Positions 5,277 through 64,000 of a stretch of 64,000 nt of DNA are shown here, piece by piece (the stretch's first letter is position 1; the number at the start of each line of letters is the position of its first letter). Source of the DNA: a virus; IMG/VR virus record IMGVR_UViG_3300042563_002756. One strand, 5' to 3'. The translations under genes were made by a program, and so were the position numbers. Under the pieces are notes generated by a model. The model was not told where the DNA came from, did no database searches, and saw only the letters and a program-made list of their open reading frames with translations.

Positions 5277-5546
5277 TTATTCTCCAGTAGTTTTTGTTTT
5301 ATTAGATGCAACAATACCTGATTGTGCTTGTTTAACTTTAGAAGATTCTGGAATTGCTTTAGGGTTGTTTTCATAATACTCAGCAATAACTTCTTCGCGT
5401 TTGCGAACAATTTTTCCACCTGGGCCTAATTCGTCCCCTCTTGCATTTACTCTTGCGTTGCCGATAGCAGGCATAAGTTCATTTTGCGTCATGAGCTTAT
5501 CCATGTCTACTTCTTTACCCTGCATTGTTTTATACACTCTTCCCAT
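5277..5546 (-). CDS. hypothetical protein (89 aa)
   Basis: ORF. Confidence 0.4.
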   Translation of the reverse strand: MGRVYKTMQGKEVDMDKLMTQNELMPAIGNARVNARGDELGPGGKIVRKREEVIAEYYENNPKAIPESSKVKQAQSGIVASNKTKTTGE

Positions 5547-5556
5547 ATCTATCTCC

Positions 5557-6111
5557 TTATTTTAGGAATTCTTTTATATCTAGATCGTATTTAATGCTAT
5601 CAATTCGGTGAACTCCGATAAGATATAACACATAGCTTGCTACACTACTTCCACGACCGACTCCCCACACGATTTTATTCTCTCGCATAGTGTCTACTAA
5701 GTATTTAAGGTAGAACAACAAATCAAACATGCCATGTTGGATAAAAAGTAGTAGTTCTTGATCTACTCTTGCACGTTGTTGTTCTGTAGTGCATCGATCA
5801 TACAACCAATCGACTATAGGAAACTCACTGCATTCTTTGGGCATAAACCAAGTGCATTGATTTGCTTCATCAAAAAATGCCACATCTTCTTGGGGTTGCT
5901 GCCACTCTTGTAGTGGAACAAGGTTGTCTTTGTTAGTGTCGACAGCAGTATTGAACTGAACTACTGTGTTGCTATCGAGGTAGACGTTTTGTAAACTTTT
6001 GAGTTTGCCCGAATACAAGTGTTCAAATAGTTCACTAGGATCTAGAAAGACGGCACCGTATTCATTGATATTCATATTAACATTATACGCACCTACTGCA
6101 TACAATGTCAA
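5557..6111 (-). CDS. hypothetical protein (184 aa)
   Basis: ORF. Confidence 0.45.
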   Translation of the reverse strand: MTLYAVGAYNVNMNINEYGAVFLDPSELFEHLYSGKLKSLQNVYLDSNTVVQFNTAVDTNKDNLVPLQEWQQPQEDVAFFDEANQCTWFMPKECSEFPIVDWLYDRCTTEQQRARVDQELLLFIQHGMFDLLFYLKYLVDTMRENKIVWGVGRGSSVASYVLYLIGVHRIDSIKYDLDIKEFLK

Positions 6112-6389
6112 TTATCTACGTTAATAAAATCGTCTAAATTCTTATTTTGATTTGCCAACTTTTGATTGGCTTTGATGTGACGGGTAGACTGCTCGGCTTT
6201 GTATGCTTCGAGTATTACTGAAATTTGGGTGCATACTGCGCCCTGTCCGAATCTAGCAGCCAAGAAGTACTTTTTCATTAACTCGGTAATCTTATTGTCG
6301 ATATCTTCGTTTTTCAACGTAGACAAATCTGGTAATAACGGATTAAACATTATGATAACGTAACTGAGGTACCAGTAAATGCATACCAT
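6108..6389 (-). CDS. hypothetical protein (93 aa)
   Basis: ORF. Confidence 0.4.
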   Translation of the reverse strand: MVCIYWYLSYVIIMFNPLLPDLSTLKNEDIDNKITELMKKYFLAARFGQGAVCTQISVILEAYKAEQSTRHIKANQKLANQNKNLDDFINVDN

Positions 6390-10102: not shown

Positions 10103-11650
10103 TTAAACCCAGGATTGAATGTTGGAACCTGTAGTTCCTACTCTAATCCATGTATCAGTTGCTACACAAACGTAAAGAAAATTTGTGTCATAAGATACAA
10201 GCCCAGAAAAACCTGACGAGTTAGGAAGTTTTGATCCTGTTCCAACTGCTACAGTGCCTGGTGGTCCCGACGGACCTGATGCTCCAGTGGGTCCAGTAGC
10301 TCCACTAGGACCTTGTGGTCCTGTAGCGCCAGATGGTCCACTAGGTCCTGTAGCGCCTACTCCTGATGGTCCACTAGGACCTGATGGTCCTGTTGGTCCA
10401 GTTGGTCCAACAAAGCCAATTCCGTTGGCGCCCGATGGGCCTGACGGTCCTGTCGGTCCTGTACTACCTGCGGGACCCTGCGGTCCTGTGGCACCTGCGC
10501 CCGATGGCCCAGTCGGACCTGATGGTCCTGCAACAGCACTTGCTGGACCCGGAGGGCCTGACGGTCCTGTTGCACCTTCTGGTCCTGTTGGACCCGACGG
10601 TCCTTGTGGCCCTGTAGCACCTGCACCTGTGGGTCCTACGTCACCTGGAATTCCTTGAGCACCTGACGGTCCTTGTGGGCCTTGTGGTCCCGTAGTACCA
10701 CCGCCGGTGCCGCCTGATATTGTAACCCATTCGGTGTCATACTCAGTGTTTGATGCTTTGGCTAGAACTTGTCCAGTAAATCCACCTACTGCTATGCCTG
10801 TGCCTGTGCTTCCAGGTGCGCCTGATGGTCCTGATGGTCCTGATGGGCCTGGCAAACCGGGGCTTCCCGGACTACCTGCAGGGCCTTGTGGTCCAGTAGG
10901 CCCTGCACCAGCAGTTGTACTAGTGTTGACCCATTTAGTACCGTCGTACTTTAAAAACTCTCCGCTAATAGGACTTGTTAGTGTTACATCAGTTAACGAG
11001 CTTAATGCAGTTACTCCCGGTGTTGCAGAACCTAAATTTACAACTCCGAATGTACCATACATGTCACTACTGTTTTCTGCGGCATAATATAGTGTAGATG
11101 GAGCGCCTAACGGTACAGCAAATGTAATTGTTCCCGTGGCTGTGCCATTATTAGTTACACCACTATTATATGTATTTTCAGTTCCTGTAGTAGCCGCAGT
11201 TTTAATCCATAACGGATACCCAGCAGCATTAACACTGAAGTTATATGTAAATCCTCTTACAAGGTTTAATGTAGGATCATTGAATCCTTCGATAATATAG
11301 TCTAAACTACCGTTGTTAGTAATAGTATATGTAATTCCAAACCCGCCACCTTCTGGTCCAGTTGGACCAGCGTCACCTTGCGGCCCTTGAGGACCAGAAG
11401 GCCCAGTTGGACCAGGTACTGTACTAGCATCGCCCTGCGGACCTTGTGGTCCTGTTGCACCTTCTGGTCCTTGTGGTCCAGCGCCACCAGCTACTCCGCC
11501 ATAGGCAAGAGTAGCCCAGGTCGAAGTGCCGCTGCCTATTTTAAATTGCCCTGTATCTGTTTCTAGGGCCATTTCTCCTTCGGCCAGGACAGGGTTTGCA
11601 GAACTCCATTCTGCAGCGGTACCTCTTCTAAGTTGAATTTGAACAGCCAT
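10103..11650 (-). CDS. collagen-like tail fibre/structural protein (515 aa) with conserved phage fibre N-terminal domain
   Basis: N-term [32 protein letters not shown]; multiple Gly-X-Y runs. Confidence 0.7.
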
Positions 11651-13307: not shown

Positions 13308-13676
13308 ATGGAAATTATTGTCGCAGTCGCAGTATTTGGCTTTGGATTATGGTGGGTCTTTTTAAGAACTCCTGCTGATACAAAACCATCTGCACCTTAT
13401 AAAATTGAAACTCCACCTGCACCGGAACCTGCTCCGGTTGTGGTAGAAACTGCACCTGCAGTTGTTACTGATACAGTAGTGGTAGTAGAAAATGCAGTCG
13501 TACCAGAAGCTGTAGTAGCAGAAGCTCCTGCTAAGAAGCCACGTACACCACGTGCTCCTAAAGTAGAAGCTCCTGTAGCAAAACCAGCCGCAAAAAAAGC
13601 AGCCCCTGTTAAGAAGGCTGCTGCTATTAAAGCTGCTCCTAAGAAACCAGCAACTCCGAGATCAAAGAAGGCTTAA
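13308..13676 (+). CDS. membrane-anchored low-complexity protein with histone H1/AlgP-like Lys-Ala-Pro repeat tail
   Basis: N-terminal hydrophobic helix (IIVAVAVFGFGLWWVFL), then APAPEPAPVVV and KKAAPVKKAAAIKAAPKKPATPRSKK repeats; AAAGGA RBS. Confidence 0.55.
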   Translation: MEIIVAVAVFGFGLWWVFLRTPADTKPSAPYKIETPPAPEPAPVVVETAPAVVTDTVVVVENAVVPEAVVAEAPAKKPRTPRAPKVEAPVAKPAAKKAAPVKKAAAIKAAPKKPATPRSKKA

Positions 13677-14690
13677 TTTTTTAGCTCGGTCGGCAAGGGC
13701 AACGCTCGCAAGGTTTTTGCCCTTTGCTTCTACCATAATATCATGGGTATCGAGGAAACTTAATGCCCATTCATTTACTGCGGTGTTCCACATAAAATTA
13801 CTGTGGGCTCGCAGTTTCTGCTTTTTGTGTCCGGCTTCTAATAGCTGTGCATAATCGGGCAGTGTTTTCTCACAATGTCCAGGTAGCCATTCTTCACGGC
13901 TAACAGAATAGTGCATAACGGGTCGAACACCCCGCCAGCTGTCAATCACACGTAGAACTCTATCGTCGGTGGGTTGAATGTAGTCTCCTGTACGGACCCA
14001 GTGATGGTGTACGTCAAGCACGAGGGCGCAATGTTTTTGCAGCTCAAGGCTGCTTTCGATTCCCCAGGCGTTCTCGTCGTTTTCAATTGTGATGCAGTTT
14101 CTTGCTTCGGGGGTAAGTCTTCCGAGTACATCCTTAATGCCTTGTGGACCTCTTCGACCCGAGATGTGGACGTTGATTTTAAAGTCTTGAAACGATTTAC
14201 CATATCCCATCCAGCGGGCCATATCCACATGATATTCAAACTCCTCTATCGACCTATTTACAATATCATCCGACTCACTTGCCAAGACAGTAAACTGACC
14301 AGGATGAAAGCTGAGCCTAACGCCGCCCTTGCGAGCCAGATCTCCCACGGCTCGAAATGCTCTTTCGCAATAGGCTCTAACATCGGATAGCCTGTAAAAG
14401 AACTGCCAATCGCGCTGAGTATACACAGGTAGTATATCGCTGCCGAGTCGTACCATTCTAAGATTTTCATCAAGTGCTCCTACACGTTCTACCAGTTTGC
14501 GAACAGCTTCAATGTTACCTTTAGTAAGGTCCCAAAGTTTTTCTTCTGCTACATTCTGGCTCTGTCTATTTAACCACGCAACGGTGGTAGAGCCAGTATT
14601 GTACTTTTTAGCATCGTCATTGGGCTTGATGCCATTAACTTGTGCAGGAGTGTCGATCCATTTGCAGGCAAATCCAATTTGTTTTTTCAT
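13662..14690 (-). CDS. uvdE: UV-damage endonuclease (UvdE/UvsE family TIM-barrel)
   Basis: SFHPGQFT, INVHISGRRG, ITIENDE, LVLDVHHHW, IMVEAKGKN blocks align with B. subtilis UvsE (SFHPNQFT, INIHIGGAYG, LTLENDD, FVFDFHHF, FMIEAKQKD). Confidence 0.8.
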   Translation of the reverse strand: MKKQIGFACKWIDTPAQVNGIKPNDDAKKYNTGSTTVAWLNRQSQNVAEEKLWDLTKGNIEAVRKLVERVGALDENLRMVRLGSDILPVYTQRDWQFFYRLSDVRAYCERAFRAVGDLARKGGVRLSFHPGQFTVLASESDDIVNRSIEEFEYHVDMARWMGYGKSFQDFKINVHISGRRGPQGIKDVLGRLTPEARNCITIENDENAWGIESSLELQKHCALVLDVHHHWVRTGDYIQPTDDRVLRVIDSWRGVRPVMHYSVSREEWLPGHCEKTLPDYAQLLEAGHKKQKLRAHSNFMWNTAVNEWALSFLDTHDIMVEAKGKNLASVALADRAKKLSLL

Positions 14691-22395: not shown

Positions 22396-22451
22396 TTTGT
22401 GCTCCTTGCTGTTTCAGTATAGTTATATTATACAGCCAGAACGGCTGTAAG

Positions 22452-22730
22452 TCAAGAGTCGGTAATACCAGTTTTGTCCAAATATTCCGAGTATTTCAAC
22501 AGGAACATAGTACGCTTTGGCTCGTTGTAAAAGTCCAAATAGATTGACTCTTTTAGATACTTATGTCCAAAATCTGGATCCATCTTCCATACCCTGTGGG
22601 TTCTGCTAGTAAAACCTAAAACCGATTTCATCTTATTTCGAATTAGTAATACACTAGGCGGGTAATCCTGAGCTATTTGATTATAGATTTTAAGCCATTG
22701 TGCCTCGGACAACACTATAGATCTGCTCAT
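22452..22730 (-). CDS. hypothetical protein (92 aa)
   Basis: ORF. Confidence 0.4.
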   Translation of the reverse strand: MSRSIVLSEAQWLKIYNQIAQDYPPSVLLIRNKMKSVLGFTSRTHRVWKMDPDFGHKYLKESIYLDFYNEPKRTMFLLKYSEYLDKTGITDS

Positions 22731-25445: not shown

Positions 25446-25476
25446 ACGACTATTATATAGTAGATTGTACCAAAAG

Positions 25477-25848
25477 TCAATTGGTTTTGGTAATAAACGG
25501 AGTTAATTCTGGAGGCGTCCAGCCCAAAGGTTTAAGCACTTTTCCATCCTCGCGCTTACGCACCTTGCCTGTTTCTTTGTCAATTTTGGCAAAATTAGTT
25601 CTCATGACTTCTTTCCATGCACCCTCTGCATCTGCGCCCATGCTGTGTAATGCTCCTATTGTAACAACTAAAATATCGACTAGTGCATCGACGGTTTCGA
25701 CTTTATCGTGTTGGCCTACAGCTTCGCCTAATTCTCTACACTCTTCTTCTATTAGCGTCATGTAAAGGTTAAATTGATCTTCGTTAAAGTTATCAACGGT
25801 CTGGTCGCAGGCTCGCATAAACTTTTCCATATCTCTAAAAACATTCAT
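25477..25848 (-). CDS. mazG: MazG-like nucleoside triphosphate pyrophosphohydrolase
   Basis: EExxE ... D metal-binding helices (LIEEECRELGEA ... DALVDIL). Confidence 0.65.
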   Translation of the reverse strand: MNVFRDMEKFMRACDQTVDNFNEDQFNLYMTLIEEECRELGEAVGQHDKVETVDALVDILVVTIGALHSMGADAEGAWKEVMRTNFAKIDKETGKVRKREDGKVLKPLGWTPPELTPFITKTN

Positions 25849-25905: not shown

Positions 25906-26682
25906 TTAGTTTCGTCGGAATGTGTTTGTCATATATTCCTTGTTGTAAATTAAATTTTTAATACTTTGAGATCTACTCTTAGAACTCTTTTCCCCTAACA
26001 CTGCTACTGCAAACATAGTATCATTGTGCTTGACCAACATTACTAAGCATCTACCTGCTTTGCTGGTAAAGCCAGTTTTACTAATCAACACATTATAGTT
26101 TGTAATATCAGGATTAGTGTTTCTTACCTGTAATGTTACAGTCTTGTTCCTGTTATTGTCAAACTCTACTTTCTCATTTTCAGCCGATGAAATCTGTGTG
26201 ATTAGCGTGTATCTACGCAACCACCATACAAAATTTACTAGATCATTAGCTGTACTAACATTTCCGGCGCCTATACCACTAGCATCTTCAATACGAGTAT
26301 TTTTTAGACCGATGTCGCTTATATGTTCATTGACATAGTTTATAAAGGCAGCGTAGCCACCAGGATGAGCATGTGCTAAACTGTCAGCGGCCCGATTATC
26401 GCTGGCGATCAGCATGGCCTTGATAAGTTCTATTCGGAGAACCTTGGTCTTATTTGGAAATCGTCCTGTTGTAGATCCTTTGACAACGATTGATTCGTTG
26501 AGATCAACTCCACTGTCAATTACTGCCATTGCTGTAAATAGTTTAGTAACACTGGCAATTGGTACTACTTGATCTTCTCTAACCGCAGCCTCCATTACTG
26601 CATCGGTAAAATTATATAGTGCGGCAGTTGTGGCACCTGCGTTTAGAGAGCAGAACAGAAGAAGGATAGTTAGGATTTTCAT
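25906..26682 (-). CDS. D-alanyl-D-alanine carboxypeptidase (serine peptidase S11, PBP5-like) with signal peptide (ORF open to 26739)
   Basis: signal peptide MKILTILLLFCSLNAGA; SxxK (SVTK), SxN (SDN), KTG motifs. Confidence 0.8.
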   Translation of the reverse strand: MKILTILLLFCSLNAGATTAALYNFTDAVMEAAVREDQVVPIASVTKLFTAMAVIDSGVDLNESIVVKGSTTGRFPNKTKVLRIELIKAMLIASDNRAADSLAHAHPGGYAAFINYVNEHISDIGLKNTRIEDASGIGAGNVSTANDLVNFVWWLRRYTLITQISSAENEKVEFDNNRNKTVTLQVRNTNPDITNYNVLISKTGFTSKAGRCLVMLVKHNDTMFAVAVLGEKSSKSRSQSIKNLIYNKEYMTNTFRRN

Positions 26683-26686
26683 ACAT

Positions 26687-26980
26687 TTATTTAACTTGTC
26701 CCCAACGAAGATAAAACTCGGATAACTTCTTTGCTTCAAGTTCCGCCATAATAATATACCTATATCCCGTCCACATTGAATCCATATGTCTATGCCATTC
26801 TGGTTTATCTACAGCGTGTTTGAATACAAACTGCCCTGCTTCACTACGTTCCCAATCAAACATAGGCCCAGCAGCATATATGTCAGGATCGTCGACATCG
26901 GCAAGATTAAACTTATGCACAACAACCTTGTGAATCTTTTTCACAACATCGCCTTCTACAGTATATCTTACTGAGCCCAT
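26687..26980 (-). CDS. hypothetical protein (97 aa)
   Basis: ORF. Confidence 0.4.
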   Translation of the reverse strand: MGSVRYTVEGDVVKKIHKVVVHKFNLADVDDPDIYAAGPMFDWERSEAGQFVFKHAVDKPEWHRHMDSMWTGYRYIIMAELEAKKLSEFYLRWGQVK

Positions 26981-47488: not shown

Positions 47489-48094
47489 ATGAAAATTGTA
47501 CGTTACAGAGAATTGATCGACAATACTGAATTTTTTACTTTTTTAAAAACAGAGTCACTTGAAATAGATCAGCTAGCAAGCATAAATCTTTGGACAGAAG
47601 ATCAGCAATCTAACAGTCATACGCTATCTTATATTTTAACAAACACTAACCGGTTTGATGGAGTTAACGGTGACTTCTATATCCTTTATGATGGTAATAA
47701 TATAGTGGCATGTAGCGGCGTATACATAAGTGAATTTAGTAAAGATATTGTAATTGCAGGCGTGCGTACTTGGGTGAATAAAAATTACCGCCATTTAACA
47801 TTGAATAGAGACTATCTTTTAGCAGAACAAAAAAAATGGGCAATAGATAGAAATGCAAAAATAATAGCATTATCGTTTAATGAGTATAACAAAAACATTA
47901 TTCAAATTTTCAAGCGTAACCGGCTAGGAGAAAACTCAGGAAGAATTAACAGTCGGTTGCCCAAACATATTTTTTACAATGGTTTACAGGAAATTAAATT
48001 TCCGATAATAATTCAATATACTCCTCAGTGGGTAATCTACGAAAAATTAGATTCAAATTTTACATTTGACTGGACTACTATTAAATGGAAGTAA
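47489..48094 (+). CDS. hypothetical protein, possible GNAT-like fold (201 aa)
   Basis: weak acyl-CoA N-acyltransferase-like core; speculative. Confidence 0.3.
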   Translation: MKIVRYRELIDNTEFFTFLKTESLEIDQLASINLWTEDQQSNSHTLSYILTNTNRFDGVNGDFYILYDGNNIVACSGVYISEFSKDIVIAGVRTWVNKNYRHLTLNRDYLLAEQKKWAIDRNAKIIALSFNEYNKNIIQIFKRNRLGENSGRINSRLPKHIFYNGLQEIKFPIIIQYTPQWVIYEKLDSNFTFDWTTIKWK

Positions 48095-56008: not shown

Positions 56009-58186
56009 TTAAATACCTTTCTTTGCATCAATTAAATTTACATACTCGGCAATATCGCTTGCCTCTACGCGGTAAGTACTCAAACTAGTCAACAACGGAT
56101 AACGGCTGTTAACTGTGTTGAGTTCTGTTTGATACTTGGTCACAAGTGCTTCTGGGCTAAGGTTAGCTGTAGGAGCAAACTTGCGGAACAGTCTATCAAT
56201 ATTGTAGCGGTTTCCTGTGAACTTGTCAACCTTTACAAACACTGAAACCAGTTTAGCGTAAGGACTGTTGGCATCAATTTCAGCCAAAATATCTTTATTG
56301 TGGATGCCGTTGATAACATCGGCCCCCTCTAATGCACTCTTAACCAAACTCATCAACAGTTTGGAATTGTCCTTAGCAGCCAACTGATCAACAATGTGTT
56401 CTTCAAAGTTTTTCCAGTTTGGCTTCTTCTTGATATCTTCAATGTCGCTCTTACGCACACCATAGATTTCACCATTGAACAAATTGTGCAAGCTCTTGAC
56501 ATCTTCATGCATGTCCTTACCGCTAGTATAGCCTTTGGCACTTAGCATTGTGAAGCCGCTCAATGGTACATAGTAGTAGGTTTCTGTAGTGACAAACTTG
56601 CTAGTATCGCCTGCGGCACGCCAGACCATATCTTGCTCATCACGACGATAGCCACCGCCACCACGACGTTCCAACTTGAGAATTGAAACGTTCTTACCCA
56701 TGTTCTCACGTTCACGTTGCTTCAAGGTACTTGCGACAAAGCGACGAGCAAGCGGAGGTTCTTGGATAGCGGCAAAGAAAGACTTGGTATCCATGTCCTT
56801 AGTCTTGTCTGCCTTTTCCAAAATCCAGATAGCACGGCTGTAAACACCGCAACCAGTTTCACGATAGTGATAACGAGCACGTTCGCCGGCACCGGTCTTT
56901 AAATCATTGATGATGAAGTGACTGGCGTCATCAACCTGCACATGCCATTCTTGCCAAGTGATGTAATGTCCGGCAGCATTTTTTGCATGTCCGGGAGCGT
57001 ACTCTGTAGTGCTCTTACCAGTGGTCACAGCCTTGTTATGACGAGTCTGATGCAACTGTCGAATCTGGATGTTATAGTTAGCAGCCAAGTCCTCTACTTT
57101 AAACTCAAACCGCTTCAAACGGTTGTACTGTTTGTCGTCATAAGTAGGCAAAGCAGTGTCTTGAGCATACTTGCTCACAGCCGCGGTCCACAGTCGATGC
57201 TCTTTCTTCTTGAACAAGAACACAGCACGATCCCACAGGTTCTCAATAGCATCTGCTTCCTTGGCAATGACCACAGTCAACGCCGCATTGACTGCTTCCA
57301 ATTTACGTTTGATAGCCGCAACAGTTGATGGGATGTAACTGAGGCCTTCGCGGCTGGCTTGGAAGTCCAGTTCGCCAATACCAAAGTGCATTTCCAAACC
57401 GCAGACCAGCAACTGCTTCAACTCAGGCGGAATAGATCCGTCAGCGTTAGGCACCTCGATAGGATAAGCAATATTGCCCATAATGGCTGCACTGTTACTG
57501 CGATCCTTGAAACTATGCACACCGGGAACAATGTCGCGGCTTTCGTACTCAGCATCAACAAACTGGAAATCGGAACTGCCAGAAACAACCGGACGGAGAG
57601 CAAAGTGTTTGTAGACAACTCGAGCTTCTTGTCGGAACTTGTCAAAGTCGTAACGATCGTTGACGGAAAACTTAACTTCAACACCAGCAGGCTCTTCTGT
57701 AGCTTCCTGCATCATCAAGGCAATGCTGGGCACGCCTTCCCCGTTGATAAAAGCTGAGTAGATACCCTTAACGCCGTTTTGGATAGCAGTCACAGTGAAG
57801 TTGTCAGTGTAGCTGAACGGACTCTTTGAACCCAACCCCAGCGCACCAATAAACTCGTTGGAGTTTGTTTTAGTACTTTCAAAGTAAGTGGTGTAGATTT
57901 GGGTAACTTGCTGATGACTCAAGCCAGTGCCGTAGTCACGGATGGCAAAGTGCGGCTCCAATGTGTTGGGCAAATGCACATCAAACGGAGTGTCTTTCTT
58001 ACCTGCGGCTGCATGGCTGTCCACAGCATTGCAACTCAATTCGCGGATGATAGCACGGATCTTGTTAGCATACAAGCCCGAACTCAAAATGCTGAACGCT
58101 TTGGCAGAATTGCGAATACGGAACTCGCCAATTTCTGCTACGTTAGAAACAATAGCTTCGTTAACTGGAGCATTGTTGAGAATCAT
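56009..58186 (-). CDS. rIIA: rIIA-like protein with N-terminal GHKL ATPase-like domain
   Basis: KIRAIIRELSCNAVDSHA and GLGSKSPFSYTD match T4 rIIA (KIRAVVRELITN, GLGSKSPFSYTD). Confidence 0.85.
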   Translation of the reverse strand: MILNNAPVNEAIVSNVAEIGEFRIRNSAKAFSILSSGLYANKIRAIIRELSCNAVDSHAAAGKKDTPFDVHLPNTLEPHFAIRDYGTGLSHQQVTQIYTTYFESTKTNSNEFIGALGLGSKSPFSYTDNFTVTAIQNGVKGIYSAFINGEGVPSIALMMQEATEEPAGVEVKFSVNDRYDFDKFRQEARVVYKHFALRPVVSGSSDFQFVDAEYESRDIVPGVHSFKDRSNSAAIMGNIAYPIEVPNADGSIPPELKQLLVCGLEMHFGIGELDFQASREGLSYIPSTVAAIKRKLEAVNAALTVVIAKEADAIENLWDRAVFLFKKKEHRLWTAAVSKYAQDTALPTYDDKQYNRLKRFEFKVEDLAANYNIQIRQLHQTRHNKAVTTGKSTTEYAPGHAKNAAGHYITWQEWHVQVDDASHFIINDLKTGAGERARYHYRETGCGVYSRAIWILEKADKTKDMDTKSFFAAIQEPPLARRFVASTLKQRERENMGKNVSILKLERRGGGGYRRDEQDMVWRAAGDTSKFVTTETYYYVPLSGFTMLSAKGYTSGKDMHEDVKSLHNLFNGEIYGVRKSDIEDIKKKPNWKNFEEHIVDQLAAKDNSKLLMSLVKSALEGADVINGIHNKDILAEIDANSPYAKLVSVFVKVDKFTGNRYNIDRLFRKFAPTANLSPEALVTKYQTELNTVNSRYPLLTSLSTYRVEASDIAEYVNLIDAKKGI

Positions 58187-58218
58187 GTAAAACCTTTCAG
58201 TAGTGTGTTTGTCTGTAT

Positions 58219-58230
58219 GTATATATTATA
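58219..58230 (-). promoter_or_regulatory. TATAATATATAC promoter-like motif upstream of rIIA
   Basis: extended sigma70 -10-like element ~38 nt upstream of ATG, AAAGG RBS. Confidence 0.45.
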
Positions 58231-58270
58231 CAAGAAAAAACCAACCCTGTCAAGAGTTGGTTTGTCCAAA

Positions 58271-58474
58271 TTATCTACCCACTGCAATCAATCGAATTCG
58301 TAATGCGTTCAAACTTGACTGGATAGTCATAAGTTCTGCCAACGCTTTAGTGTAGTGACCATTGGGATGTTTATCATGTCCCAATTTACGATCCACACCC
58401 AGAGCCATTTTAACACTGGCAATGGCTGTGTCAACTGCTTCAATTCGTGCTTCGAGTTTTTCTAAGTCTGTCAT
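58271..58474 (-). CDS. hypothetical protein (67 aa)
   Basis: ORF. Confidence 0.4.
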   Translation of the reverse strand: MTDLEKLEARIEAVDTAIASVKMALGVDRKLGHDKHPNGHYTKALAELMTIQSSLNALRIRLIAVGR

Positions 58475-58668
58475 GTTGTTTCCTTTTCAATACACTGTTC
58501 CACATCCTGCAAGATACGCCGGAGTTCGGCAATATTGACTTCCAACATATGAGCCATAGTCTCTCGGATCGACTTGGTCAGGATGCTGGGATTCCGGTAG
58601 GTCTCCAACAGCATTTCCTTGCCGGCGATTGTGTTACGCAGATTACTTGCTACGGTTTGGATGTTCAT
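58471..58668 (-). CDS. hypothetical protein (65 aa)
   Basis: ORF, ATGA-coupled. Confidence 0.4.
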   Translation of the reverse strand: MNIQTVASNLRNTIAGKEMLLETYRNPSILTKSIRETMAHMLEVNIAELRRILQDVEQCIEKETT

Positions 58669-58883
58669 TCTTCAACTCCGAAATGTTCTAATTTTTCATT
58701 TAAGAGATTCCAACTGACACTATCAACTACGAACATATCACGGCAATCCTTAATACATTTCCGCACAATCAACTCGGCGAACTTTTCCATTACTATCTCG
58801 CCGTACATTTTGCCCTTTCGGTCAAATATCTCATCGGCAGCAGCCTCAGCCTGAATTTGAAGTTCTTTAATTCGTTCATTCAT
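58665..58883 (-). CDS. small protein, KFAELIVRKC ... HFGV family paralog
   Basis: MNERIKELQIQAEAA ... EKFAELIVRKC ... EHFGVEE. Confidence 0.5.
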   Translation of the reverse strand: MNERIKELQIQAEAAADEIFDRKGKMYGEIVMEKFAELIVRKCIKDCRDMFVVDSVSWNLLNEKLEHFGVEE

Positions 58884-59113
58884 TTTCCAACTCCGAAATG
58901 TTCTAAAATCTGTTCTCGGGCGGCGCCTAGCACAGCACTATCTCCACCATCAACATCTTCCAAGTTAGTATTGCTGGCAATGGCAGCACATTTTTTCACA
59001 ATCAACTCGGCGAACTTTTTACGGAAAATAAATTCCCATTCATCTAAGTCAGTCGTTTCCCGACTAGCATATTGACTAGCCTGGTCTTCAAGTTCTTTAA
59101 TTTGTTCGTTCAT
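58880..59113 (-). CDS. small protein, KFAELIVKKC ... HFGV family paralog
   Basis: MNEQIKELEDQASQ ... KKFAELIVKKC ... EHFGVGK; tandem with previous. Confidence 0.5.
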   Translation of the reverse strand: MNEQIKELEDQASQYASRETTDLDEWEFIFRKKFAELIVKKCAAIASNTNLEDVDGGDSAVLGAAREQILEHFGVGK

Positions 59114-59319
59114 TTCTTTTTTCCAATCTTGGTTACAACATCAGCCTTGCTCTGTAGCAGTTGGGCACGGAAGCGACGATATACTCGCAATGAGGCAATG
59201 CTCATAGGATCTTCCTTGCCTTCCAACTCTGCTATCTTAGCATCCAGTTCGGCTTCATGGGCACGATGACGTTCGACATCTGCCTTGAGCCCTTTAGTCT
59301 CGCCCCAAAAGAATTTCAT
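59110..59319 (-). CDS. hypothetical protein (69 aa)
   Basis: ORF. Confidence 0.4.
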   Translation of the reverse strand: MKFFWGETKGLKADVERHRAHEAELDAKIAELEGKEDPMSIASLRVYRRFRAQLLQSKADVVTKIGKKK

Positions 59320-59320
59320 A

Positions 59321-59614
59321 TCATCCCCACTTTAACATAAAGAACATAGCGTCCTTTTCGTTTTTGAATCTATACTCAAAAGGTCCAGGACTCCAACGAG
59401 GATTGTTATATCCGTCATTTCTGTGTCCAAACTGCTTCGAGCACCACTCTGTCATAGCATCCTTTTCTTCCCACCAATCACCGCCTGAATAATACACAGT
59501 GTATTTCTGGGGAGCAAGTTCTTCACGCACTCGCATTTCGAGAGTCCGAGGTCGTTTAGTAAACCAGTTCATAGGAGTATGCGGATAAAAACTATTAACG
59601 TCTAAATCAATCAT
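59321..59614 (-). CDS. hypothetical protein (97 aa)
   Basis: ORF. Confidence 0.4.
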   Translation of the reverse strand: MIDLDVNSFYPHTPMNWFTKRPRTLEMRVREELAPQKYTVYYSGGDWWEEKDAMTEWCSKQFGHRNDGYNNPRWSPGPFEYRFKNEKDAMFFMLKWG

Positions 59615-60147
59615 ACACCTACGAACCGGCTGGCTTCGGCGTGCAACCCTGCGTCACCCTTGGTCATCACAGCCAACAACAATCTCTTTTCCTCCAAGTA
59701 GGTCTTGGCGAAAGCAGGATCGTGAGCCATGATGCTACGGCTGTTAGAGATCAAATCTGCCAACTTGATGGTTTGTGCTTCAGCGGGAGCTTCGGCAGTG
59801 TGAGCACGGTCTATTGCCTTGCGGTGGGCACGATTGCCATCATGTGGTTGACTAACATCAGTCAACCATCCAACCAAGGTAGCAATGTCGATGCCAAAAG
59901 CCATATGGATGTCAGTAAAAGTACAACCAGTGTCTTCCACAACATCATGCAACCAAGCAGCCGCCACCATGTCCGGAGTTGAACCTGGAACGCCTGCTAC
60001 GATCTTGGCAACTTCAGCCGGGTGGACAATGTAGGGTTCGTTAGTGTACTTACGCCTCTGTCCAACTGCGGCGTGAGCAGCCATGGCATAGACTTGCGCC
60101 TTACGGACTACATCAAATCCGCTGAGATCCATTGTAAAATCTTCCAT
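59611..60147 (-). CDS. HD-domain phosphohydrolase, (p)ppGpp hydrolase (Mesh1/SpoT-HD)-like
   Basis: H ... HD metal-binding pattern (HPAEVA ... WLHDVVEDT). Confidence 0.7.
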   Translation of the reverse strand: MEDFTMDLSGFDVVRKAQVYAMAAHAAVGQRRKYTNEPYIVHPAEVAKIVAGVPGSTPDMVAAAWLHDVVEDTGCTFTDIHMAFGIDIATLVGWLTDVSQPHDGNRAHRKAIDRAHTAEAPAEAQTIKLADLISNSRSIMAHDPAFAKTYLEEKRLLLAVMTKGDAGLHAEASRFVGV

Positions 60148-60167
60148 GCTGCTCTCCTTGTTAATAA

Positions 60168-60179
60168 GTATATATTATA
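60168..60179 (-). promoter_or_regulatory. TATAATATATAC motif plus conserved RBS cassette upstream of HD gene
   Basis: ATAATATATACTTATTAACAAGGAGAGCAGCATGGAAG nearly identical to the cassette upstream of 60218..60826. Confidence 0.45.
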
Positions 60180-60217
60180 GCATGGATTTACCATGCTGTC
60201 AACCGGGATTTGACATC

Positions 60218-60826
60218 TTATTTAAATTTTGGACCCACTGCCCAGAATACAATTGATTTACGAACCCCACTGGTCAATGGTGTTACTCGATGATGAATGT
60301 ATGACGGGAATGATATAATTCTTCCTTTTTCTTGCGGAATAATTATTGGAGCATCGACATTGTCAGTAATTATTTCAAAGTCACCTCCTGTATAATCTGT
60401 ATTATCCGATAGTACTAAACTAAATGATAGTTTTCTTGGATTCCGCAACTCAACGGCTGAACTTAAACCAAATGCCATATCTGTATGATATGCATAATGT
60501 GATCCAATTTGGTTGTATACAGTATACTGAAATCGATCAAATCCAATTAAATCAAATTGAAAATTCTTATCATTTATAATATTTGCAACATATTCTAAAA
60601 TATCAAAAATCCACCCATTAGCATCGTTGATAAAATGAAATTTTGTTTCTGATATTCTAATATCTTTATTTTGATCTCGATTACCTATTGTAGCAGGATT
60701 TGTGCCTTGTTGGCTACAATATTTTTCAATGGCATCTAATATACTTAGATCAATCAAATTATCAGAAATTACATAAGGATATGTAATGTGATTTCTAATA
60801 ACTGGCATTTCAATTAGTGCTTCCAT
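60218..60826 (-). CDS. Fe(II)/2-oxoglutarate-dependent oxygenase (prolyl 4-hydroxylase-like)
   Basis: HTD (HxD), distal HHR, RKS 2OG-binding motif. Confidence 0.7.
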   Translation of the reverse strand: MEALIEMPVIRNHITYPYVISDNLIDLSILDAIEKYCSQQGTNPATIGNRDQNKDIRISETKFHFINDANGWIFDILEYVANIINDKNFQFDLIGFDRFQYTVYNQIGSHYAYHTDMAFGLSSAVELRNPRKLSFSLVLSDNTDYTGGDFEIITDNVDAPIIIPQEKGRIISFPSYIHHRVTPLTSGVRKSIVFWAVGPKFK

Positions 60827-60848
60827 GCTACTCTCCTTGCTAATAAGT

Positions 60849-60858
60849 GTATATTATA
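60849..60858 (-). promoter_or_regulatory. TATAATATAC motif plus conserved RBS cassette upstream of 2OG oxygenase gene
   Basis: ATAATATACACTTATTAGCAAGGAGAGTAGCATGGAAG. Confidence 0.45.
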
Positions 60859-60993
60859 ACATTGAAAGCAGGGCGTGTCAACCAGAATAGCAAACTAGAT
60901 TCTTATGAGCTTGTGTGCATCTAGCGCAAAAGAATCGCTGTAAAACGTTCTTCGGTGCTGATTTGTGTACTAAAGTTTATCTAAACTGTAAAC

Positions 60994-61224
60994 TCAAGTA
61001 CTAGTTTTGACTACTTCTAAAACGGTAATTTCCACAACCAAATGCTTACGCAGTAGCATGAACTTTTTGAACTTGGCTTCTATGTCCGCCCGAATGTACT
61101 CGTCATGATAAGGCATAGTAGCAACGTCCTCATAGGGTTCATCGTTTTCGTTTAACGCTATGAAACTGAGCTTTACTGTGCCCTGTTCGGGATCTTTGAA
61201 CATTTTAACAAATTTGTTGAACAT
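60994..61224 (-). CDS. hypothetical protein (76 aa)
   Basis: ORF. Confidence 0.4.
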   Translation of the reverse strand: MFNKFVKMFKDPEQGTVKLSFIALNENDEPYEDVATMPYHDEYIRADIEAKFKKFMLLRKHLVVEITVLEVVKTST

Positions 61225-61232
61225 GCAAATAT

Positions 61233-61778
61233 TTAGTGATGCCCTTTAATTTCGTTATCTTTAATCATACGAACTGCCCGATCCATGGTGATTACAATTT
61301 CCCCAGTTGAGTCCATACCCACATCCATGCAACGATATTTTTCCATCCCTGTAGTGCCACCGTGCAAGTGACCGTGAAAGTGCAGAGCACCACGATGCAT
61401 CTGATCCCATTCATAGATAGGATAGTGAAACATCACGCACTTGTGTCCGTCATAGGTAACATCCAAATACTTATGTACTTCAACAAATGCATCGCGGAAT
61501 GTTACATCCATTAGGGTCTTGCGGTCATGGTTGCCTTCTACAAGGATCTTATCTCCGTTCAACCGATTCATCATTCGTCCAGCATCACTTCCTGACATAA
61601 ACGCTACATCGCCTAAGATGTAGACTAAATCACCTGGCTCCACTTTGGCATTCCATTCTTCTACCATTGCGCTATTCATATAGCCGACATCGTCACGGAA
61701 TCGTGCTCGTGTTTGTGGACAGAACTTCATGATGTTCTTGTGCCCGAAATGGAGATCCGAAGTAATCCAAGTTTTCAT
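61233..61778 (-). CDS. calcineurin-like metallophosphoesterase
   Basis: DLHFGH, GDVAF, GNHD, GHLHG phosphoesterase motifs. Confidence 0.85.
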   Translation of the reverse strand: MKTWITSDLHFGHKNIMKFCPQTRARFRDDVGYMNSAMVEEWNAKVEPGDLVYILGDVAFMSGSDAGRMMNRLNGDKILVEGNHDRKTLMDVTFRDAFVEVHKYLDVTYDGHKCVMFHYPIYEWDQMHRGALHFHGHLHGGTTGMEKYRCMDVGMDSTGEIVITMDRAVRMIKDNEIKGHH

Positions 61779-61813
61779 ATTATTTCCTATTATACAGCCA
61801 GTGACCTATACCG

Positions 61814-62278
61814 TCAACTGGCATACCAAATTTCTTTAAACCCTTCTTCCTCAGTGGGCTCTTCCCAACTGGCAATCATGCTGGCAATAACATGATCCGG
61901 AATCTCTTTGCCAGGGCGGCTCATCAATCGGCGCATAAGTTCTTTGTGTTCAGGTGTCTTAAACACTATTGCAATATGCTCATAGTCAGGTAACATGTTA
62001 AACTTGCGAGTACGACTTGCAAGAGTAGTACTAGTTTGATCCCAGATAATATCTCGATTCATTTCACGAGCCGCAACAACTTCCTTGGCCATAAGGTCTA
62101 CAGCAGTGGGCATAAAGTCTACAAACACTTCGCTGTAGGTGCGTCCTACTTCCTTTGCGTAGATTTCAACCCACTTGTCTGTGCTAATACAAGAGCAGGT
62201 TAACGCCCAGTCTTGTTCAGCCACCCAAGTACTTTTACCTGAACCAGGCACTCCAATCAATTGATAACATTTTGCCAT
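61814..62278 (-). CDS. polynucleotide 5'-kinase domain protein (T4 Pnk kinase-like P-loop NTPase)
   Basis: LIGVPGSGKSTW matches T4 Pnk TIGCPGSGKSTW; later blocks DQTSTTLASR and RPGKEIPDHVIASM parallel Pnk. Confidence 0.7.
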   Translation of the reverse strand: MAKCYQLIGVPGSGKSTWVAEQDWALTCSCISTDKWVEIYAKEVGRTYSEVFVDFMPTAVDLMAKEVVAAREMNRDIIWDQTSTTLASRTRKFNMLPDYEHIAIVFKTPEHKELMRRLMSRPGKEIPDHVIASMIASWEEPTEEEGFKEIWYAS

Positions 62279-62746
62279 TTAATCTACACTCCTAAAAGTT
62301 CGCCAATCATCTACATTTGGCTTTTCATCTTCATCATAAGTCCAACCCAGAGACTTCATCATGCGATGTTTGACCAACAGGTTAGGACTACGGAATCGAC
62401 CAGTGTCATCGAAGCCCATCATGACTCCAACTTCGCACACTGCGCCACTACGGCAAATGCCTGCAAAGCAGTGAACAACTACATTCATACGGTTGGCTAG
62501 TGCATGTTGTAGCAGTCGAACAAGCTCGTTAGCCTGCTCTTGACTACACCGCATGGCTTCTTCAAGAACAACATCATTCTTTTCCACATCTAGAAATTCA
62601 AAATTATGAATCTCTTTGAACTTGTGTGCGGGCACAGGGCGCCAGCTGGCCGGATCAACAATGCTGATCAGCATACTGTTCTCACCTGCCTCATGATGAA
62701 ACCTAGTTGGTATATCAGCGGCTGCTACATTTTCAATCCATGGCAT
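62279..62746 (-). CDS. Cys-based (CX5R) protein phosphatase, dual-specificity/PTP-like
   Basis: VHCFAGICRSG CX5R(S) P-loop. Confidence 0.75.
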   Translation of the reverse strand: MPWIENVAAADIPTRFHHEAGENSMLISIVDPASWRPVPAHKFKEIHNFEFLDVEKNDVVLEEAMRCSQEQANELVRLLQHALANRMNVVVHCFAGICRSGAVCEVGVMMGFDDTGRFRSPNLLVKHRMMKSLGWTYDEDEKPNVDDWRTFRSVD

Positions 62747-62817
62747 GTGGTTCTCCTTTTAAACTCTTTCTAATTATAGCATAACTTTACCACTTAGTCA
62801 AGCTAGTAAATAATAGT

Positions 62818-63042
62818 ATGGTCAATCCCAAAACTCGAATCCAAGAAAAGTTAGACGATTTAAACGAACTACTGAACCACTATACGTATCCTACAAAAGG
62901 AGAAACACTGGCGGCACAAAAGGGTCTAATGTTAGGTTGGTTGGCTAGATTAGCTTCAACTGACTATATTGTTGCTCAGGAACTAGAGGCCCGGTTGCAT
63001 TTGGCTAAGCAGAAGAATTTATCCTCAAAAGGTACATCGTAA
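62818..63042 (+). CDS. hypothetical protein (74 aa)
   Basis: ORF, one of few plus-strand genes. Confidence 0.4.
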   Translation: MVNPKTRIQEKLDDLNELLNHYTYPTKGETLAAQKGLMLGWLARLASTDYIVAQELEARLHLAKQKNLSSKGTS

Positions 63043-63262
63043 CTTCAGGCCCGTCAACTTTGACAAGATCTCCAGGATACTTGTTACTACCAGTATACCA
63101 TTTACTTGCACCTCGTCCTGCTTCGATAACCGTAATCAGTTTAGGATTAAGTTTCTTTACAGTGCCTAGTTCTAGACTATTGTGGCTAGGATAGCAGACA
63201 GCATCGCCCACTGCCAACATTCGTCCTAGTTTGTCTCGGTGTTCTGGTTGTGCCTTTGCCAC
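63005..63262 (-). CDS. hypothetical protein (85 aa)
   Basis: ORF. Confidence 0.4.
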   Translation of the reverse strand: MAKAQPEHRDKLGRMLAVGDAVCYPSHNSLELGTVKKLNPKLITVIEAGRGASKWYTGSNKYPGDLVKVDGPEVTMYLLRINSSA

Positions 63263-63263
63263 G

Positions 63264-63491
63264 TTAAACTCTTTCTCTCTTCATGCCGCCAATACGGCTC
63301 GCTTTGTTCCAATCGTAGGCAACACCATCTGGGCACAGCCCATCCTTCACGCTATCTACACCGAACATACCTACGATTTCAAAATCTGGTCCTGTGATAG
63401 ACACAAACTCGTTCATCTCTTTGGCAGTGTGCATTGCTTCTTCTAATGAAGCAACTTCGGAAATTATATCTTTACCTTTTACTTTATACAT
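63264..63491 (-). CDS. hypothetical protein (75 aa), possibly leaderless
   Basis: TATAATATATAG directly abuts ATG (TSS predicted at A of ATG). Confidence 0.4.
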   Translation of the reverse strand: MYKVKGKDIISEVASLEEAMHTAKEMNEFVSITGPDFEIVGMFGVDSVKDGLCPDGVAYDWNKASRIGGMKRERV

Positions 63492-63528
63492 CTATATATT
63501 ATACTTTCTTTTCAACATTTAGTCAAGA

Positions 63529-63554: not shown

Positions 63555-63629
<75 letters not shown>

Positions 63630-63804: not shown

Positions 63805-63862
63805 GTGCTACCACTACACCAACACCGCTGACCAAGCAGTGCCCAGGATTCGAACCTGGCCC
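63805..63862 (-). other. tRNA-like fragments in non-canonical order (T-arm GGCCAGGTTCGAATCCTGG followed by a 5'-half-like GCGGTGTTGGTGTAGTGGTAGCAC)
   Basis: canonical T-loop and D-arm-like segments on minus strand but permuted; no intact cloverleaf found. Confidence 0.3.
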
Positions 63863-64000
63863 GTCTTTTTTACAGAAAGTTTAATAAGATTGCTGAAAAG
63901 AACCTAAATGGTCAAACCATTTGTTATATTGTAGATTTTATCAGTTTATTGTTCTACAACCTCACGACGCCATGGCAGCTATACTGCCGCACTGCTCGAT

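Follow-up and report, generated by a model that had tools for sequence, protein, structure and literature searches.

The locus raises the question of whether three neighbouring phage genes, encoding a kinase, a phosphoesterase and a cysteine phosphatase, work together on broken RNA ends. The genes come from an uncultured jumbo phage, adjoin each other on the minus strand and lie within a 64-kb stretch of DNA, here called the window:

61233..61778, minus strand, binuclear metallophosphoesterase (MPE) of the aq_1665/PHROG 547 family, 181 aa (phrog_547, 9.4e-51)
61814..62278, minus strand, stand-alone polynucleotide-kinase-like P-loop kinase with GVPGSGKST, 154 aa (AAA_33, 2.5e-17)
62279..62746, minus strand, CX5R cysteine phosphatase with HCFAGICRSG, 155 aa (weak DSPc and Tc-R-P matches)

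Matches to AAA_33, PHROG 547 and DSPc confirmed the domain identities that a preliminary description had given for three adjacent genes, and we confirmed their coordinates. All three ORFs are real genes rather than chance ORFs, because hundreds of contigs carry homologous sequences and dN/dS lies at 0.05-0.10 (median against the window 0.055 for CX5R, 0.10 for the kinase and 0.064 for the MPE). Megablast of the region from 59 to 64 kb against 50,697 phage records returned no match, and the region therefore has no close cultured relative. We favour, with moderate confidence, the reading that the three genes and a nearby HD hydrolase supply the end healing in a modular RNA repair cassette of phages, most likely for tRNA, that is expressed early.

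By profile and fold, the kinase is a member of the polynucleotide/tRNA-kinase clade. Homologs were found on 346 viral contigs; relatives returned by the kinase and CX5R searches were all at least 79% identical, and the distant ones were obtained by tblastn of cultured phages and from locus-derived sequences. In the P-loop (G9-V-P-G-S-G14-K15-S16), G9, P11, G14 and K15 do not vary among 22 homologs, and Lys15/Ser16 are essential in the T4 kinase (PMC2831316). D34 is also invariant, is HMM-aligned to Cth D38 and the Asp of Pnkp1, and corresponds to the general base D35 of T4, while in W79-D80-Q81-T82 the invariant T82 corresponds to T4 T86 and D80, conserved in at least 90%, to T4 D85. R117 and R121 are invariant within RRLMSRPGKEIP, a segment that we matched by eye to the T4 lid segment, and we take them to be the equivalents of the lid residues R122/R126 of T4. 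Thus, of the Pnk-specific Asp/Arg residues on which the preliminary description had made its kinase assignment depend, the Asp and the lid Arg pair are present, but the Arg38 equivalent is not: V37 replaces T4 Arg38 and Cth Arg41, and the position is hydrophobic in 22/22 family members. This acceptor-phosphate Arg is essential in both enzymes (PMC2831316, PMC3902929). Mammalian PNKP also has no Arg38 equivalent (PMC2831316), and V37 therefore weakens the assignment as a T4-type member, not that as a polynucleotide kinase. Other invariant residues include R89 and Y48, which might reach the +1 phosphate instead of an Arg38. The protein carries the AAA_33 domain alone and, as had been claimed, no fused HAD phosphatase; none was matched in the scanned genes of the cluster.

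The MPE, previously taken for a lambda-phosphatase or Pnkp-type enzyme, turned out to belong to the aq_1665 family. Among structures, its profile matched aq_1665 (PDB 1xm7; 3.8e-23 over nearly the full length) and GpdQ (0.01) but neither lambda phosphatase nor Pnkp, and there was no Metallophos match in Pfam at E 0.01. Motifs D8xH10, G56D57, G82N83H84D85, H118 and G136H137xH139 are unchanged in all 11 homologs compared (31-100% identity). Aquifex aeolicus aq_1665 is a family-level homolog with all metal-binding motifs; it is a structural-genomics 'hypothetical protein' and so offers no mechanism. The MPE family occurs in 1442 phage records, compared to 74 with the kinase, and hence must also work outside the kinase context.

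The CX5R protein is a minimal dual-specificity-phosphatase (DSP) fold with an invariant H92-C93-x-A95-G96-x-C98-R99-S100-G101 (HCx5R(S/T) P-loop) and a likewise invariant D53, a candidate for the general acid, 40 residues upstream of C93. P-loop and fold are common to VH1-like/atypical DUSPs and to the RNA 5'-phosphatases BVP, PIR1/DUSP11 and Mce1, which agrees with the family proposed before; the nearest folds, however, are protein phosphatases (DUSPs), and CX5R is no closer to the RNA branch than to these. The family comprises 716 clusters at 50% identity, and a Pfam scan of its longer members for fusions revealed no extra domains. Bacterial and archaeal genomes yielded seven matches, all on MAG contigs of unrelated taxa and none with a cellular operon context. 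Outside the phage lineage CX5R occurs without kinase or MPE (L266, L269), and in BUCT-ZZ01 it lies 7 kb away. A HAD gene overlapping CX5R in L266 was considered as a functional clue and set aside as ambiguous (weakly NT5C-like, no PDB match). What links CX5R to the other genes is synteny inside one lineage, so that the RNA end-healing idea of the preliminary description finds support in the kinase and the phosphoesterase and extends to CX5R by synteny only.

Downstream of the three genes lie three further ORFs:

60994..61224, minus strand, p76, a small conserved ORF of 76 aa with no family match, found 3' of the phosphoesterase gene in some members of the lineage
60218..60826, minus strand, 2OG-Fe(II) oxygenase module, 202 aa, an insertion that separates p76 from the HD gene
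59611..60147, minus strand, HD_4 hydrolase of the RelA/SpoT type, small-alarmone-hydrolase-like, 178 aa (HD_4, 8e-15)

The HD hydrolase, encoded 1.1 kb from the three genes under its own promoter, is the fourth member of the cassette. It scored 55.3 bits for HD_4 (Pfam cutoff 27.2) and matched Rel hydrolase domains (1.3e-13), MESH1 (2.6e-13 to 1e-10) and SAH (1e-3); it thus resembles the small alarmone hydrolases (SAHs), which include MESH1, ATfaRel and PaSpo of phage SSU5. SAHs remove the pyrophosphate from tRNA 3'-CCA ends, and a phage SAH neutralises toxSAS; a linkage of SAH genes to an RNA ligase/kinase cassette is not mentioned in this literature (bioRxiv 10.1101/2021.04.30.441581; PMC9712102). 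HD-kinase fusions are a described PNKP subfamily (PMC1997131), and the kinase is homologous (31-33% identity) to such RM378-type HD + AAA_33 fusions of Campylobacter phages CP21 and F372, the latter followed by an Rnl1-type ligase. The window HD was nevertheless rejected as a split partner of an RM378-type enzyme, as it falls into another HD clade and showed no similarity to the fused HD of F372 by BLAST (E 6.7). The 2OG oxygenase is probably not a functional cassette member; it is missing from an otherwise collinear contig (L001), and a 46-nt direct repeat lies on both sides of it (60141-60186, 60820-60865). A T-arm-like tRNA sequence was also noted at 63843-63859, where a complete tRNA was ruled out by Rfam.

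The kinase ATG (62276-62278) follows immediately on the stop codon of CX5R (TAA, 62279-62281), and the 35-nt gap between kinase and phosphoesterase contains one of several predicted promoters:

62773..62801, minus strand, sigma-70 consensus promoter TTGACT-17-TATAAT with extended TG, upstream of CX5R
61789..61817, minus strand, sigma-70 consensus promoter TTGACG-17-TATAAT, upstream of the phosphoesterase and overlapping the kinase stop codon
60853-60881, twin of the HD-gene promoter, preceding the 2OG oxygenase
60174..60202, minus strand, sigma-70 promoter with a perfect 12/12 consensus, upstream of the HD gene

The first of these probably drives CX5R together with the kinase. The predicted promoters divide the three genes into two or more transcription modules rather than a single operon, within a hyperplastic array of early genes with independent promoters; expression would be early and from host-type promoters. 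As such genes are promoted independently, their neighbourhood is weaker evidence than an operon would be.

An unlikely alternative is that these are independent accessory early genes, which became neighbours only through a shared hyperplastic, recombination-prone region. Each would then counter a host system of its own: CX5R would be a protein Tyr/Ser/Thr phosphatase directed at kinase-based defence or signalling, HD would hydrolyse the alarmones (p)ppGpp/(p)ppApp, and the MPE would be a nucleotide or cyclic-nucleotide phosphodiesterase. A separate consensus promoter for each module and the free shuffling of gene order would fit this explanation, as would the affinity of CX5R to protein DUSPs and its solitary occurrence elsewhere, the closeness of HD to Rel, MESH1 and SAH hydrolases, the excess of MPE family members over kinases, and the cyclic-nucleotide phosphodiesterase roles predicted for other calcineurin-like phage enzymes by Iyer et al. 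(PMC7824862). Against it speaks the gene context in relatives, which is also the main evidence for the repair reading. Within this phage lineage, 76 contigs anchored on a ligase were compared, and there a short Rnl1-type ligase is accompanied by the MPE (74/76), CX5R (63/76), the kinase (56/76) and HD (43/76), often with overlapping stop and start codons. Of all members, the MPE has the tightest link to the ligase, whose start it adjoins or overlaps in 19 loci; HD adjoins the ligase in 17, and MPE, HD and kinase each show a stop/start overlap with this same RNA ligase in different genomes. Kinase/ligase and ligase/kinase/MPE strings also recur across unrelated phage families, with distant kinase homologs adjoining RNA ligases in six cultured phage groups, and 34 of 35 well-flanked kinase-anchored loci keep all three genes despite the shuffling.

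The identity of the linked ligases also bears on whether the set might process DNA ends (5'-OH, 3'-phosphate) in the course of DNA repair or replication, as mammalian PNKP does. The Pnk clade does include DNA kinases, the lack of an Arg38 equivalent is shared with the mammalian enzyme (PMC2831316), the MPE weakly matched NCBIfam PdeM, a ligase-associated DNA-damage endonuclease (1e-3, far below cutoff), and the window carries a UvdE gene. However, all of the linked ligases belonged to RNA-ligase families (Rnl1-type PF09511, Rnl2-type, or Pnkp-ligase with Hen1), with no DNA ligase among them, and no replication or repair genes lie near the cassette in the window, which makes a role in DNA metabolism very improbable.

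Returning to RNA repair, the sealing enzyme is absent from this particular cassette. Its absence from the window, already noted in the preliminary description, was found consistently by tblastn, by an HMM for Rnl1 run on all 250 stop-to-stop ORFs (best E 0.17, control 5e-152), by Pfam scans of 20 larger ORFs, and with XacN1 Pnkp-ligase and Hen1 queries (tblastn, phmmer). The ORF at 47489-48094 matched the Cr30 Rnl2 by phmmer (E 0.014), which we regard as chance as it had no Pfam support. Extending the search as had been suggested, we detected no RNA ligase, nor a PF09511 gene with motif I (KxxG) as present in relatives, in the 64 kb and 10 kb on either side; at least about 60% of the genome lies outside this view. 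When the DNA pattern of motif I was searched for in viral contigs, no long ligase-less contig was among the matches listed. The kinase-anchored loci carried a ligase in only 2 of 35 cases, and in this sub-lineage the healing genes thus persist without a linked sealing enzyme.

The enzymes could therefore act on RNA ends without any sealing, for example by 5'-phosphorylation that speeds the decay of cleaved mRNA, as T4 Pnk reportedly does, or by clearing 3'-phosphate, cyclic phosphate and pyrophosphate from tRNA for reuse by the host CCA-adding enzyme and synthetases. We consider this quite improbable, even though all genes of the ligase-less cassette are under purifying selection. T4 pnk and rnl are likewise unlinked, so that missing linkage does not mean a missing ligase; moreover, the ancestral or commonest context in relatives includes the ligase, and most of the genome was outside view. 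In favour of action without sealing, SAH-type enzymes need no ligase to restore pyrophosphorylated tRNA (bioRxiv 10.1101/2021.04.30.441581).

The favoured repair cassette is based on the identities of the genes, on their conserved catalytic residues and folds, on purifying selection and on ligase linkage, and its substrates, order of steps and biological trigger are given here as we infer them. The kinase would transfer an NTP phosphate to the 5'-OH by means of P-loop K15/S16, the general base D34 and lid R117/R121, while the MPE would open or remove the 2',3'-cyclic or 3'-phosphate. CX5R may strip a remaining 2'/3'-monophosphate through a Cys93-phosphoenzyme, the weakest step of the scheme, and HD may clear the 3'-pyrophosphate put on tRNA CCA ends by toxSAS toxins or hydrolyse alarmones. 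In many relatives, the healed ends would be sealed by the short Rnl1-type ligase of the same cassette; in the window phage, either an unlinked ligase would seal or the enzymes would act without sealing. A more specific version, which we think doubtful, casts the cassette as a multi-tool for tRNA ends in which the MPE is a 2',3'-cyclic phosphodiesterase, CX5R an RNA 2'/3'-phosphomonoesterase and HD the remover of toxSAS 3'-pyrophosphate, with the ligase-less form working without sealing. If true, one cassette would counter both anticodon nucleases and tRNA-pyrophosphorylating defences, using enzyme families never tied to RNA repair for the 3'-end chemistry.

Compared to T4 Pnkp (pseT) and Rnl1, the kinase has the P-loop, general-base Asp, Asp85 equivalent, lid Arg and kinase fold in common and is likewise phage-encoded and presumably expressed early, but it is a stand-alone protein of 154 aa without a DxDxT HAD phosphatase or an Arg38 equivalent, and 3'-healing is here assigned to the unrelated aq_1665-type MPE, the Cys phosphatase and HD. 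The ligase of the relatives is an Rnl1-family protein of about 300 aa with the adenylylation Lys aligned and lacks most of the T4 C-terminal domain. Bacterial Pnkp/Hen1 systems (Clostridium thermocellum Pnkp; Capnocytophaga Pnkp1-Rnl-Hen1) differ in that the window has separate genes, another phosphoesterase family, and neither Hen1 nor a Pnkp-type ligase. The best overall counterpart to the complete cassette of the relatives is a string in the T5-like Vibrio phages JSF10 and Ceto, which consists of a short Rnl1-type ligase (5e-27), an AAA_33 kinase (1.8e-7) and an aq_1665-type MPE (about 43% identity), is known from annotation alone (no experimental study was found) and, unlike the window, retains the ligase. 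The stretch viewed in these phages has no CX5R or HD_4 gene but an extra lambda-type NinI-like phosphatase, with Macro, PRPP-synthetase and NAMPT genes nearby.

Phages are known to counter host defences by RNA repair, which has been studied in very few enzyme architectures (T4 Pnkp/Rnl1, bacterial Pnkp/Hen1), and our results suggest a split system both in uncultured jumbo phages, which are abundant, and in T5-like Vibrio phages. The aq_1665-type MPE (more than 1400 phage records) has no known function, and CX5R (about 700 clusters) and HD have no known RNA role; if correct, the proposed scheme assigns testable activities to all three, provides compact new end-healing enzymes, and ties nuclease-type and pyrophosphorylation-type attacks on tRNA to one repair locus. 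Variants with and without ligase offer a natural test of whether healing alone, with no sealing, is of use. Relatives indicate where a ligase may sit:

58187..58270, no strand assigned, empty 'ligase slot', intergenic between p67 (58271-58474) and rIIA (56009-58186)

In L082, an Rnl1-type ligase (5456-6361) lies directly 3' of the p67 homolog; that of L160 lies directly before rIIA.

The three adjacent genes that the preliminary description had read as a split polynucleotide kinase-phosphatase were recovered with the same boundaries, all on the minus strand:

62279-62746, minus strand, HCx5R cysteine phosphatase (CX5R), 155 aa, weak DSPc/Tc-R-P match (Pfam)
61814-62278, minus strand, stand-alone kinase, 154 aa, AAA_33 2.5e-17 (Pfam)
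61233-61778, minus strand, metallophosphoesterase (MPE), 181 aa, phrog_547 'phosphoesterase' 9e-51 (PHROGs)

The stop codon of CX5R directly adjoins the start codon of the kinase, 35 nt separate the kinase from the MPE, and a Pfam scan gave no match for the MPE at E 0.01. Downstream on the same strand follow a 76-aa ORF, a 2OG-Fe(II) oxygenase, an HD_4 gene (HD; 59611-60147), several small ORFs, and then rIIA and rIIB. A run of small ORFs (65-77 aa) at 58471-59319, for none of which a family was found, includes a tandem paralog pair (58665-58883 and 58880-59113) with repeats D3, D5 and D6 (28-38 nt, 84-93% identity, spacing 215-233 nt). A kinase relative is present in 346 viral contigs, and median dN/dS relative to the window was 0.055 for CX5R, 0.10 for the kinase, 0.064 for the MPE and 0.078 for HD, ratios that are only approximate because dS (0.7-1.5) is near saturation; this breadth and the low ratios indicate that the three ORFs are real genes. 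The source is an uncultured jumbo phage: identical proteins are encoded on contigs of 208-240 kb, related IMG/VR contigs reach 383 kb, and no DNA-level match to the window was found among cultured phages.

We lean towards a modular phage cassette for RNA/tRNA repair in which the kinase and the MPE heal the ends and HD and CX5R are additional end-processing enzymes; support is good for the kinase step, moderate for that of the phosphoesterase and weak for that of CX5R. Residues G9, P11, G14, K15, D34, Y48, T82, R89, R117 and R121 of the kinase are invariant in the family alignment. Six residues are essential in the T4 enzyme (Lys15, Ser16, Asp35, Arg38, Asp85 and Arg126; PMC2831316), and five have counterparts here (K15, S16, D34, D80 and R121). 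The Pnk-specific catalytic Asp/Arg set considered in the preliminary description is thus present as D34, D80 and R121 and departs from expectation at T4 Arg38 (Arg41 in the Cth enzyme), which is essential in both enzymes (PMC2831316, PMC3902929) and is replaced by V37, a position that is hydrophobic family-wide. Because this arginine is missing, as it is in mammalian PNKP, which is nevertheless a true polynucleotide kinase needing longer acceptors (PMC2831316), we class the protein as a putative Pnk-clade kinase that forms a separate subfamily and is not of the T4 type.

The five binuclear metallophosphoesterase motifs are all invariant across two divergent MPE types (60-96% and ~35% identity) found among the 82 contigs closest to the window kinase. 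Its earlier assignment to the kind of phosphoesterase used in bacterial Pnkp holds only at the superfamily level; the family itself is that of Aquifex aq_1665 (1xm7; 1.4e-8 with the single sequence, 3.8e-23 with a profile), and the same searches gave no match at all to lambda phosphatase or Pnkp phosphatase. This aq_1665-type family is without an assigned function and is abundant in phages (1442 records).

Throughout the same 82 contigs, kinase, MPE and CX5R lie within ~2 kb of one another, in orders that vary (CX5R-kinase-MPE, CX5R-MPE-kinase, kinase-MPE and others) and with small ORFs intervening; all three were kept in 34 of the 35 loci with ample flanks. Six of these contigs carry in the same string a ~300-aa Rnl1-family RNA ligase (PF09511 8.8e-12), whose sole PDB relatives are T4 Rnl1 (8e-9) and whose K89 aligns with the adenylylated T4 K99. 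A ligase-anchored search reached at least 184 contigs, and among the 76 mapped by tblastn the ligase was accompanied on the same strand by MPE (74), CX5R (63), kinase (56) and HD (43). All 82 ligase-bearing loci taken together had a median span of 3.4 kb. The ligase start is abutted or overlapped by the MPE in 19 of them, by HD in 17 and by the kinase in 5, so that in different genomes this one ligase is found in translational coupling with each of three members. A variant with CX5R, the ORF p75, MPE and ligase and with no kinase in the available flanks (loci L093, L094, L096, L097, L100, L104, L110 and L114) suggests that some relatives heal 3' ends alone or hold the kinase elsewhere. The recurrent partner belongs to an RNA ligase family, and action of these enzymes on DNA ends seems improbable to us.

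The HD product has a RelA/SpoT-type hydrolase domain (HD_4 above threshold; Rel 1.3e-13, MESH1 2.6e-13 to 1e-10, SAH 1e-3), and sequence comparison ruled out a Pnk-associated HD. SAH enzymes reverse the pyrophosphorylation of tRNA 3'-CCA by toxSAS toxins, a restoration that the authors liken to the 3'-phosphatase of T4 Pnk (bioRxiv 10.1101/2021.04.30.441581); CapRel is an anti-phage toxSAS, and an SAH encoded by phage SSU5 neutralises such toxins (PMC9712102). By analogy, SAH activity on tRNA ends would offer a rationale for HD beside the ligase.

That jumbo phages encode polynucleotide kinases together with ATP-dependent RNA ligases and, 'in a small number', calcineurin-like and HD-like phosphatases was noted in earlier comparative work (PMC7824862). 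Kinase homologs (31-40% identity) were found in 74 cultured phage records. In Caulobacter phage Cr30 an Rnl1-type ligase gene (1.6e-32) runs at its end into the kinase gene, with an Rnl2-type ligase 4 kb off, and in Phaeobacter phage MD18 and Synechococcus phage BUCT-ZZ01 an Rnl1-type ligase (3.7e-25 and 5e-18) is followed directly by the kinase. Xanthomonas phage XacN1 (locus L088, 4361-8051) encodes, in this order, an AlkB-like dioxygenase, a stand-alone kinase, Hen1 (Hen1_N 5e-59; labelled 'methyltransferase' in the records) and a Pnkp-ligase-domain protein (1.2e-30; labelled 'metallophosphoesterase'), which in this cultured jumbo phage amounts to a split Pnkp/Hen1 RNA repair system of bacterial type. 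The kinase of Campylobacter phages CP21 and F372 is fused to an N-terminal HD domain, which fits the HD-kinase PNKP subfamily recognised first in phage RM378 (PMC1997131), and in F372 an Rnl1-type ligase is next. Sinorhizobium phage phiN3 has the kinase, an MPE, an HD_4-like gene (2e-6 to the window HD) and a Band_7 gene in one neighbourhood, as the window does. The nearest cultured homologs of the MPE (~43% identity) belong to the T5-like Vibrio phages JSF10 and Ceto (L274), where a lambda-type phosphatase, a 300-aa RNA ligase (hhalign to the lineage ligase 99.7%, 5e-27) and an AAA_33 'ATPase' (to the kinase profile 93.8%, 1.8e-7) precede it. After the MPE, both phages (JSF10 locus L273, 1765-8522) carry genes for PRPP synthetase, a Macro-domain protein and NAMPT, and the whole stretch, which bears generic annotations only, is a putative RNA-repair plus NAD-salvage neighbourhood.

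For CX5R, the single cultured homolog is in BUCT-ZZ01, 7 kb from the ligase-kinase pair, and two MAG contigs carry it with no kinase or MPE nearby. On one MAG contig (L266, 7977-9009) a weakly NT5C-like protein of 205 aa with a HAD motif (DxDGV) overlaps the homolog of CX5R, forming a Cys and HAD phosphatase pair.

The minus strand of the window carries eight exact TTGAC-N18-TATAAT sigma-70 consensus sites and the plus strand none, against 0.11 expected by chance. Six fall within 58225-63526, before p75, CX5R, MPE, the 2OG oxygenase, HD and rIIA, and the other two are:

22427-22455, minus strand, sigma-70 consensus site
25452-25480, minus strand, sigma-70 consensus site

From these positions, CX5R and the kinase probably share one promoter, and the MPE is served by a separate one that overlaps the kinase stop codon; the 58.2-63.5 kb region is a predicted array of independently promoted early-type modules. 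The 2OG module (60218-60826) is missing from the otherwise collinear contig L001 and is bracketed exactly by a 46-nt direct repeat (60141-60186 and 60820-60865, 89% identical) covering the -10 box, 5'-UTR and start codon, which suggests gain or loss by recombination between promoter cassettes. A similar shuffling of promoter cassettes (PeSL) has been described in T4-type phages (PMC2839356, PMC4122927). An 11-pair stem-loop (58238-58263, minus strand), whose loop holds the -35 hexamer of the perfect-consensus rIIA promoter (58225-58253), is likewise a composite terminator/promoter element resembling PeSL motifs. Such shuffling explains the varied gene orders and makes neighbourhood weaker evidence here than in a fixed operon, and we therefore rely on the same partners recurring across shuffles and in unrelated phages. 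That these are independent accessory early genes, each with its own role, agrees with the separate promoters and is unlikely given this recurrence.

The window cassette is the version without a linked ligase. Directly after the ORF p67 (58271-58474) come the promoter of rIIA and rIIA itself; in contig L082 a p67 homolog is followed directly by the ligase, and in L160 the ligase directly precedes rIIA. That no ligase is visible in the window was borne out by tblastn, by phmmer for Rnl2, Pnkp-ligase and Hen1, and by scanning 20 larger ORFs with Pfam. An HMM built from 12 Rnl1-family ligases and run over every one of the 250 stop-to-stop ORFs likewise gave no ligase (best E 0.17, compared with 5e-152 for the control). 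None was found in the 10 kb beyond either window end, and nearly 1 Mb of kinase-anchored loci held no ligase beyond the six. The search for this genome covered the window and these flanks, at least 60% of the genome lying outside that scope. The T4 pnk and rnl genes are likewise unlinked, so a locus without a ligase need not mean a genome without one. Processing of RNA ends without sealing matches the locus as it stands and is, with ligases in the same string of relatives, distinctly unlikely. The repair cassette that we favour follows the same logic as T4 Pnkp/Rnl1 and bacterial Pnkp/Hen1, but differs in its split architecture, aq_1665-type phosphoesterase, added Cys phosphatase, alarmone-hydrolase-type HD and ligase-less state in the window, and in the short Rnl1 variant of relatives.

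Just upstream of the cassette lies one tRNA gene:

63556-63629, tRNA-Gly(GCC) gene

The reported targets of FaRel2-type toxSAS toxins are tRNA-Gly and tRNA-Thr (PMC11245113), and the match with this neighbour may be coincidence. About 220 nt beyond it, an isolated T-arm-like sequence (GGGCCAGGTTCGAATCCTGGGC, minus strand, 63843-63866), which neither ARAGORN nor Rfam scored as a complete tRNA, is possibly a tRNA remnant. Elsewhere, a low-GC island (~30000-52000; GC 0.28-0.36 vs 0.38-0.49 in the rest of the window) encodes TctC- and DctP-type solute-binding proteins, an AMP-binding enzyme, glycosyltransferases and two radical SAM enzymes, of which one contains a B12-binding domain; these cell-type genes look like a biosynthetic or auxiliary-metabolism block that was acquired. 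Two large proteins contain collagen repeats (7053-10019 and 10103-11650): one carries an S74 intramolecular-chaperone domain at its C terminus (tail fibre), and the other has an Mtd_N domain, known as the N-terminal domain of the major tropism determinant in the diversity-generating system of Bordetella phage. The window also encodes a UvdE UV-damage endonuclease (13662-14690), an S11 D-Ala-D-Ala carboxypeptidase (25906-26739) and PhoH (1351-2172), and the 10 kb before it (L276) carry ClpB-like, peptide deformylase and DnaJ genes.
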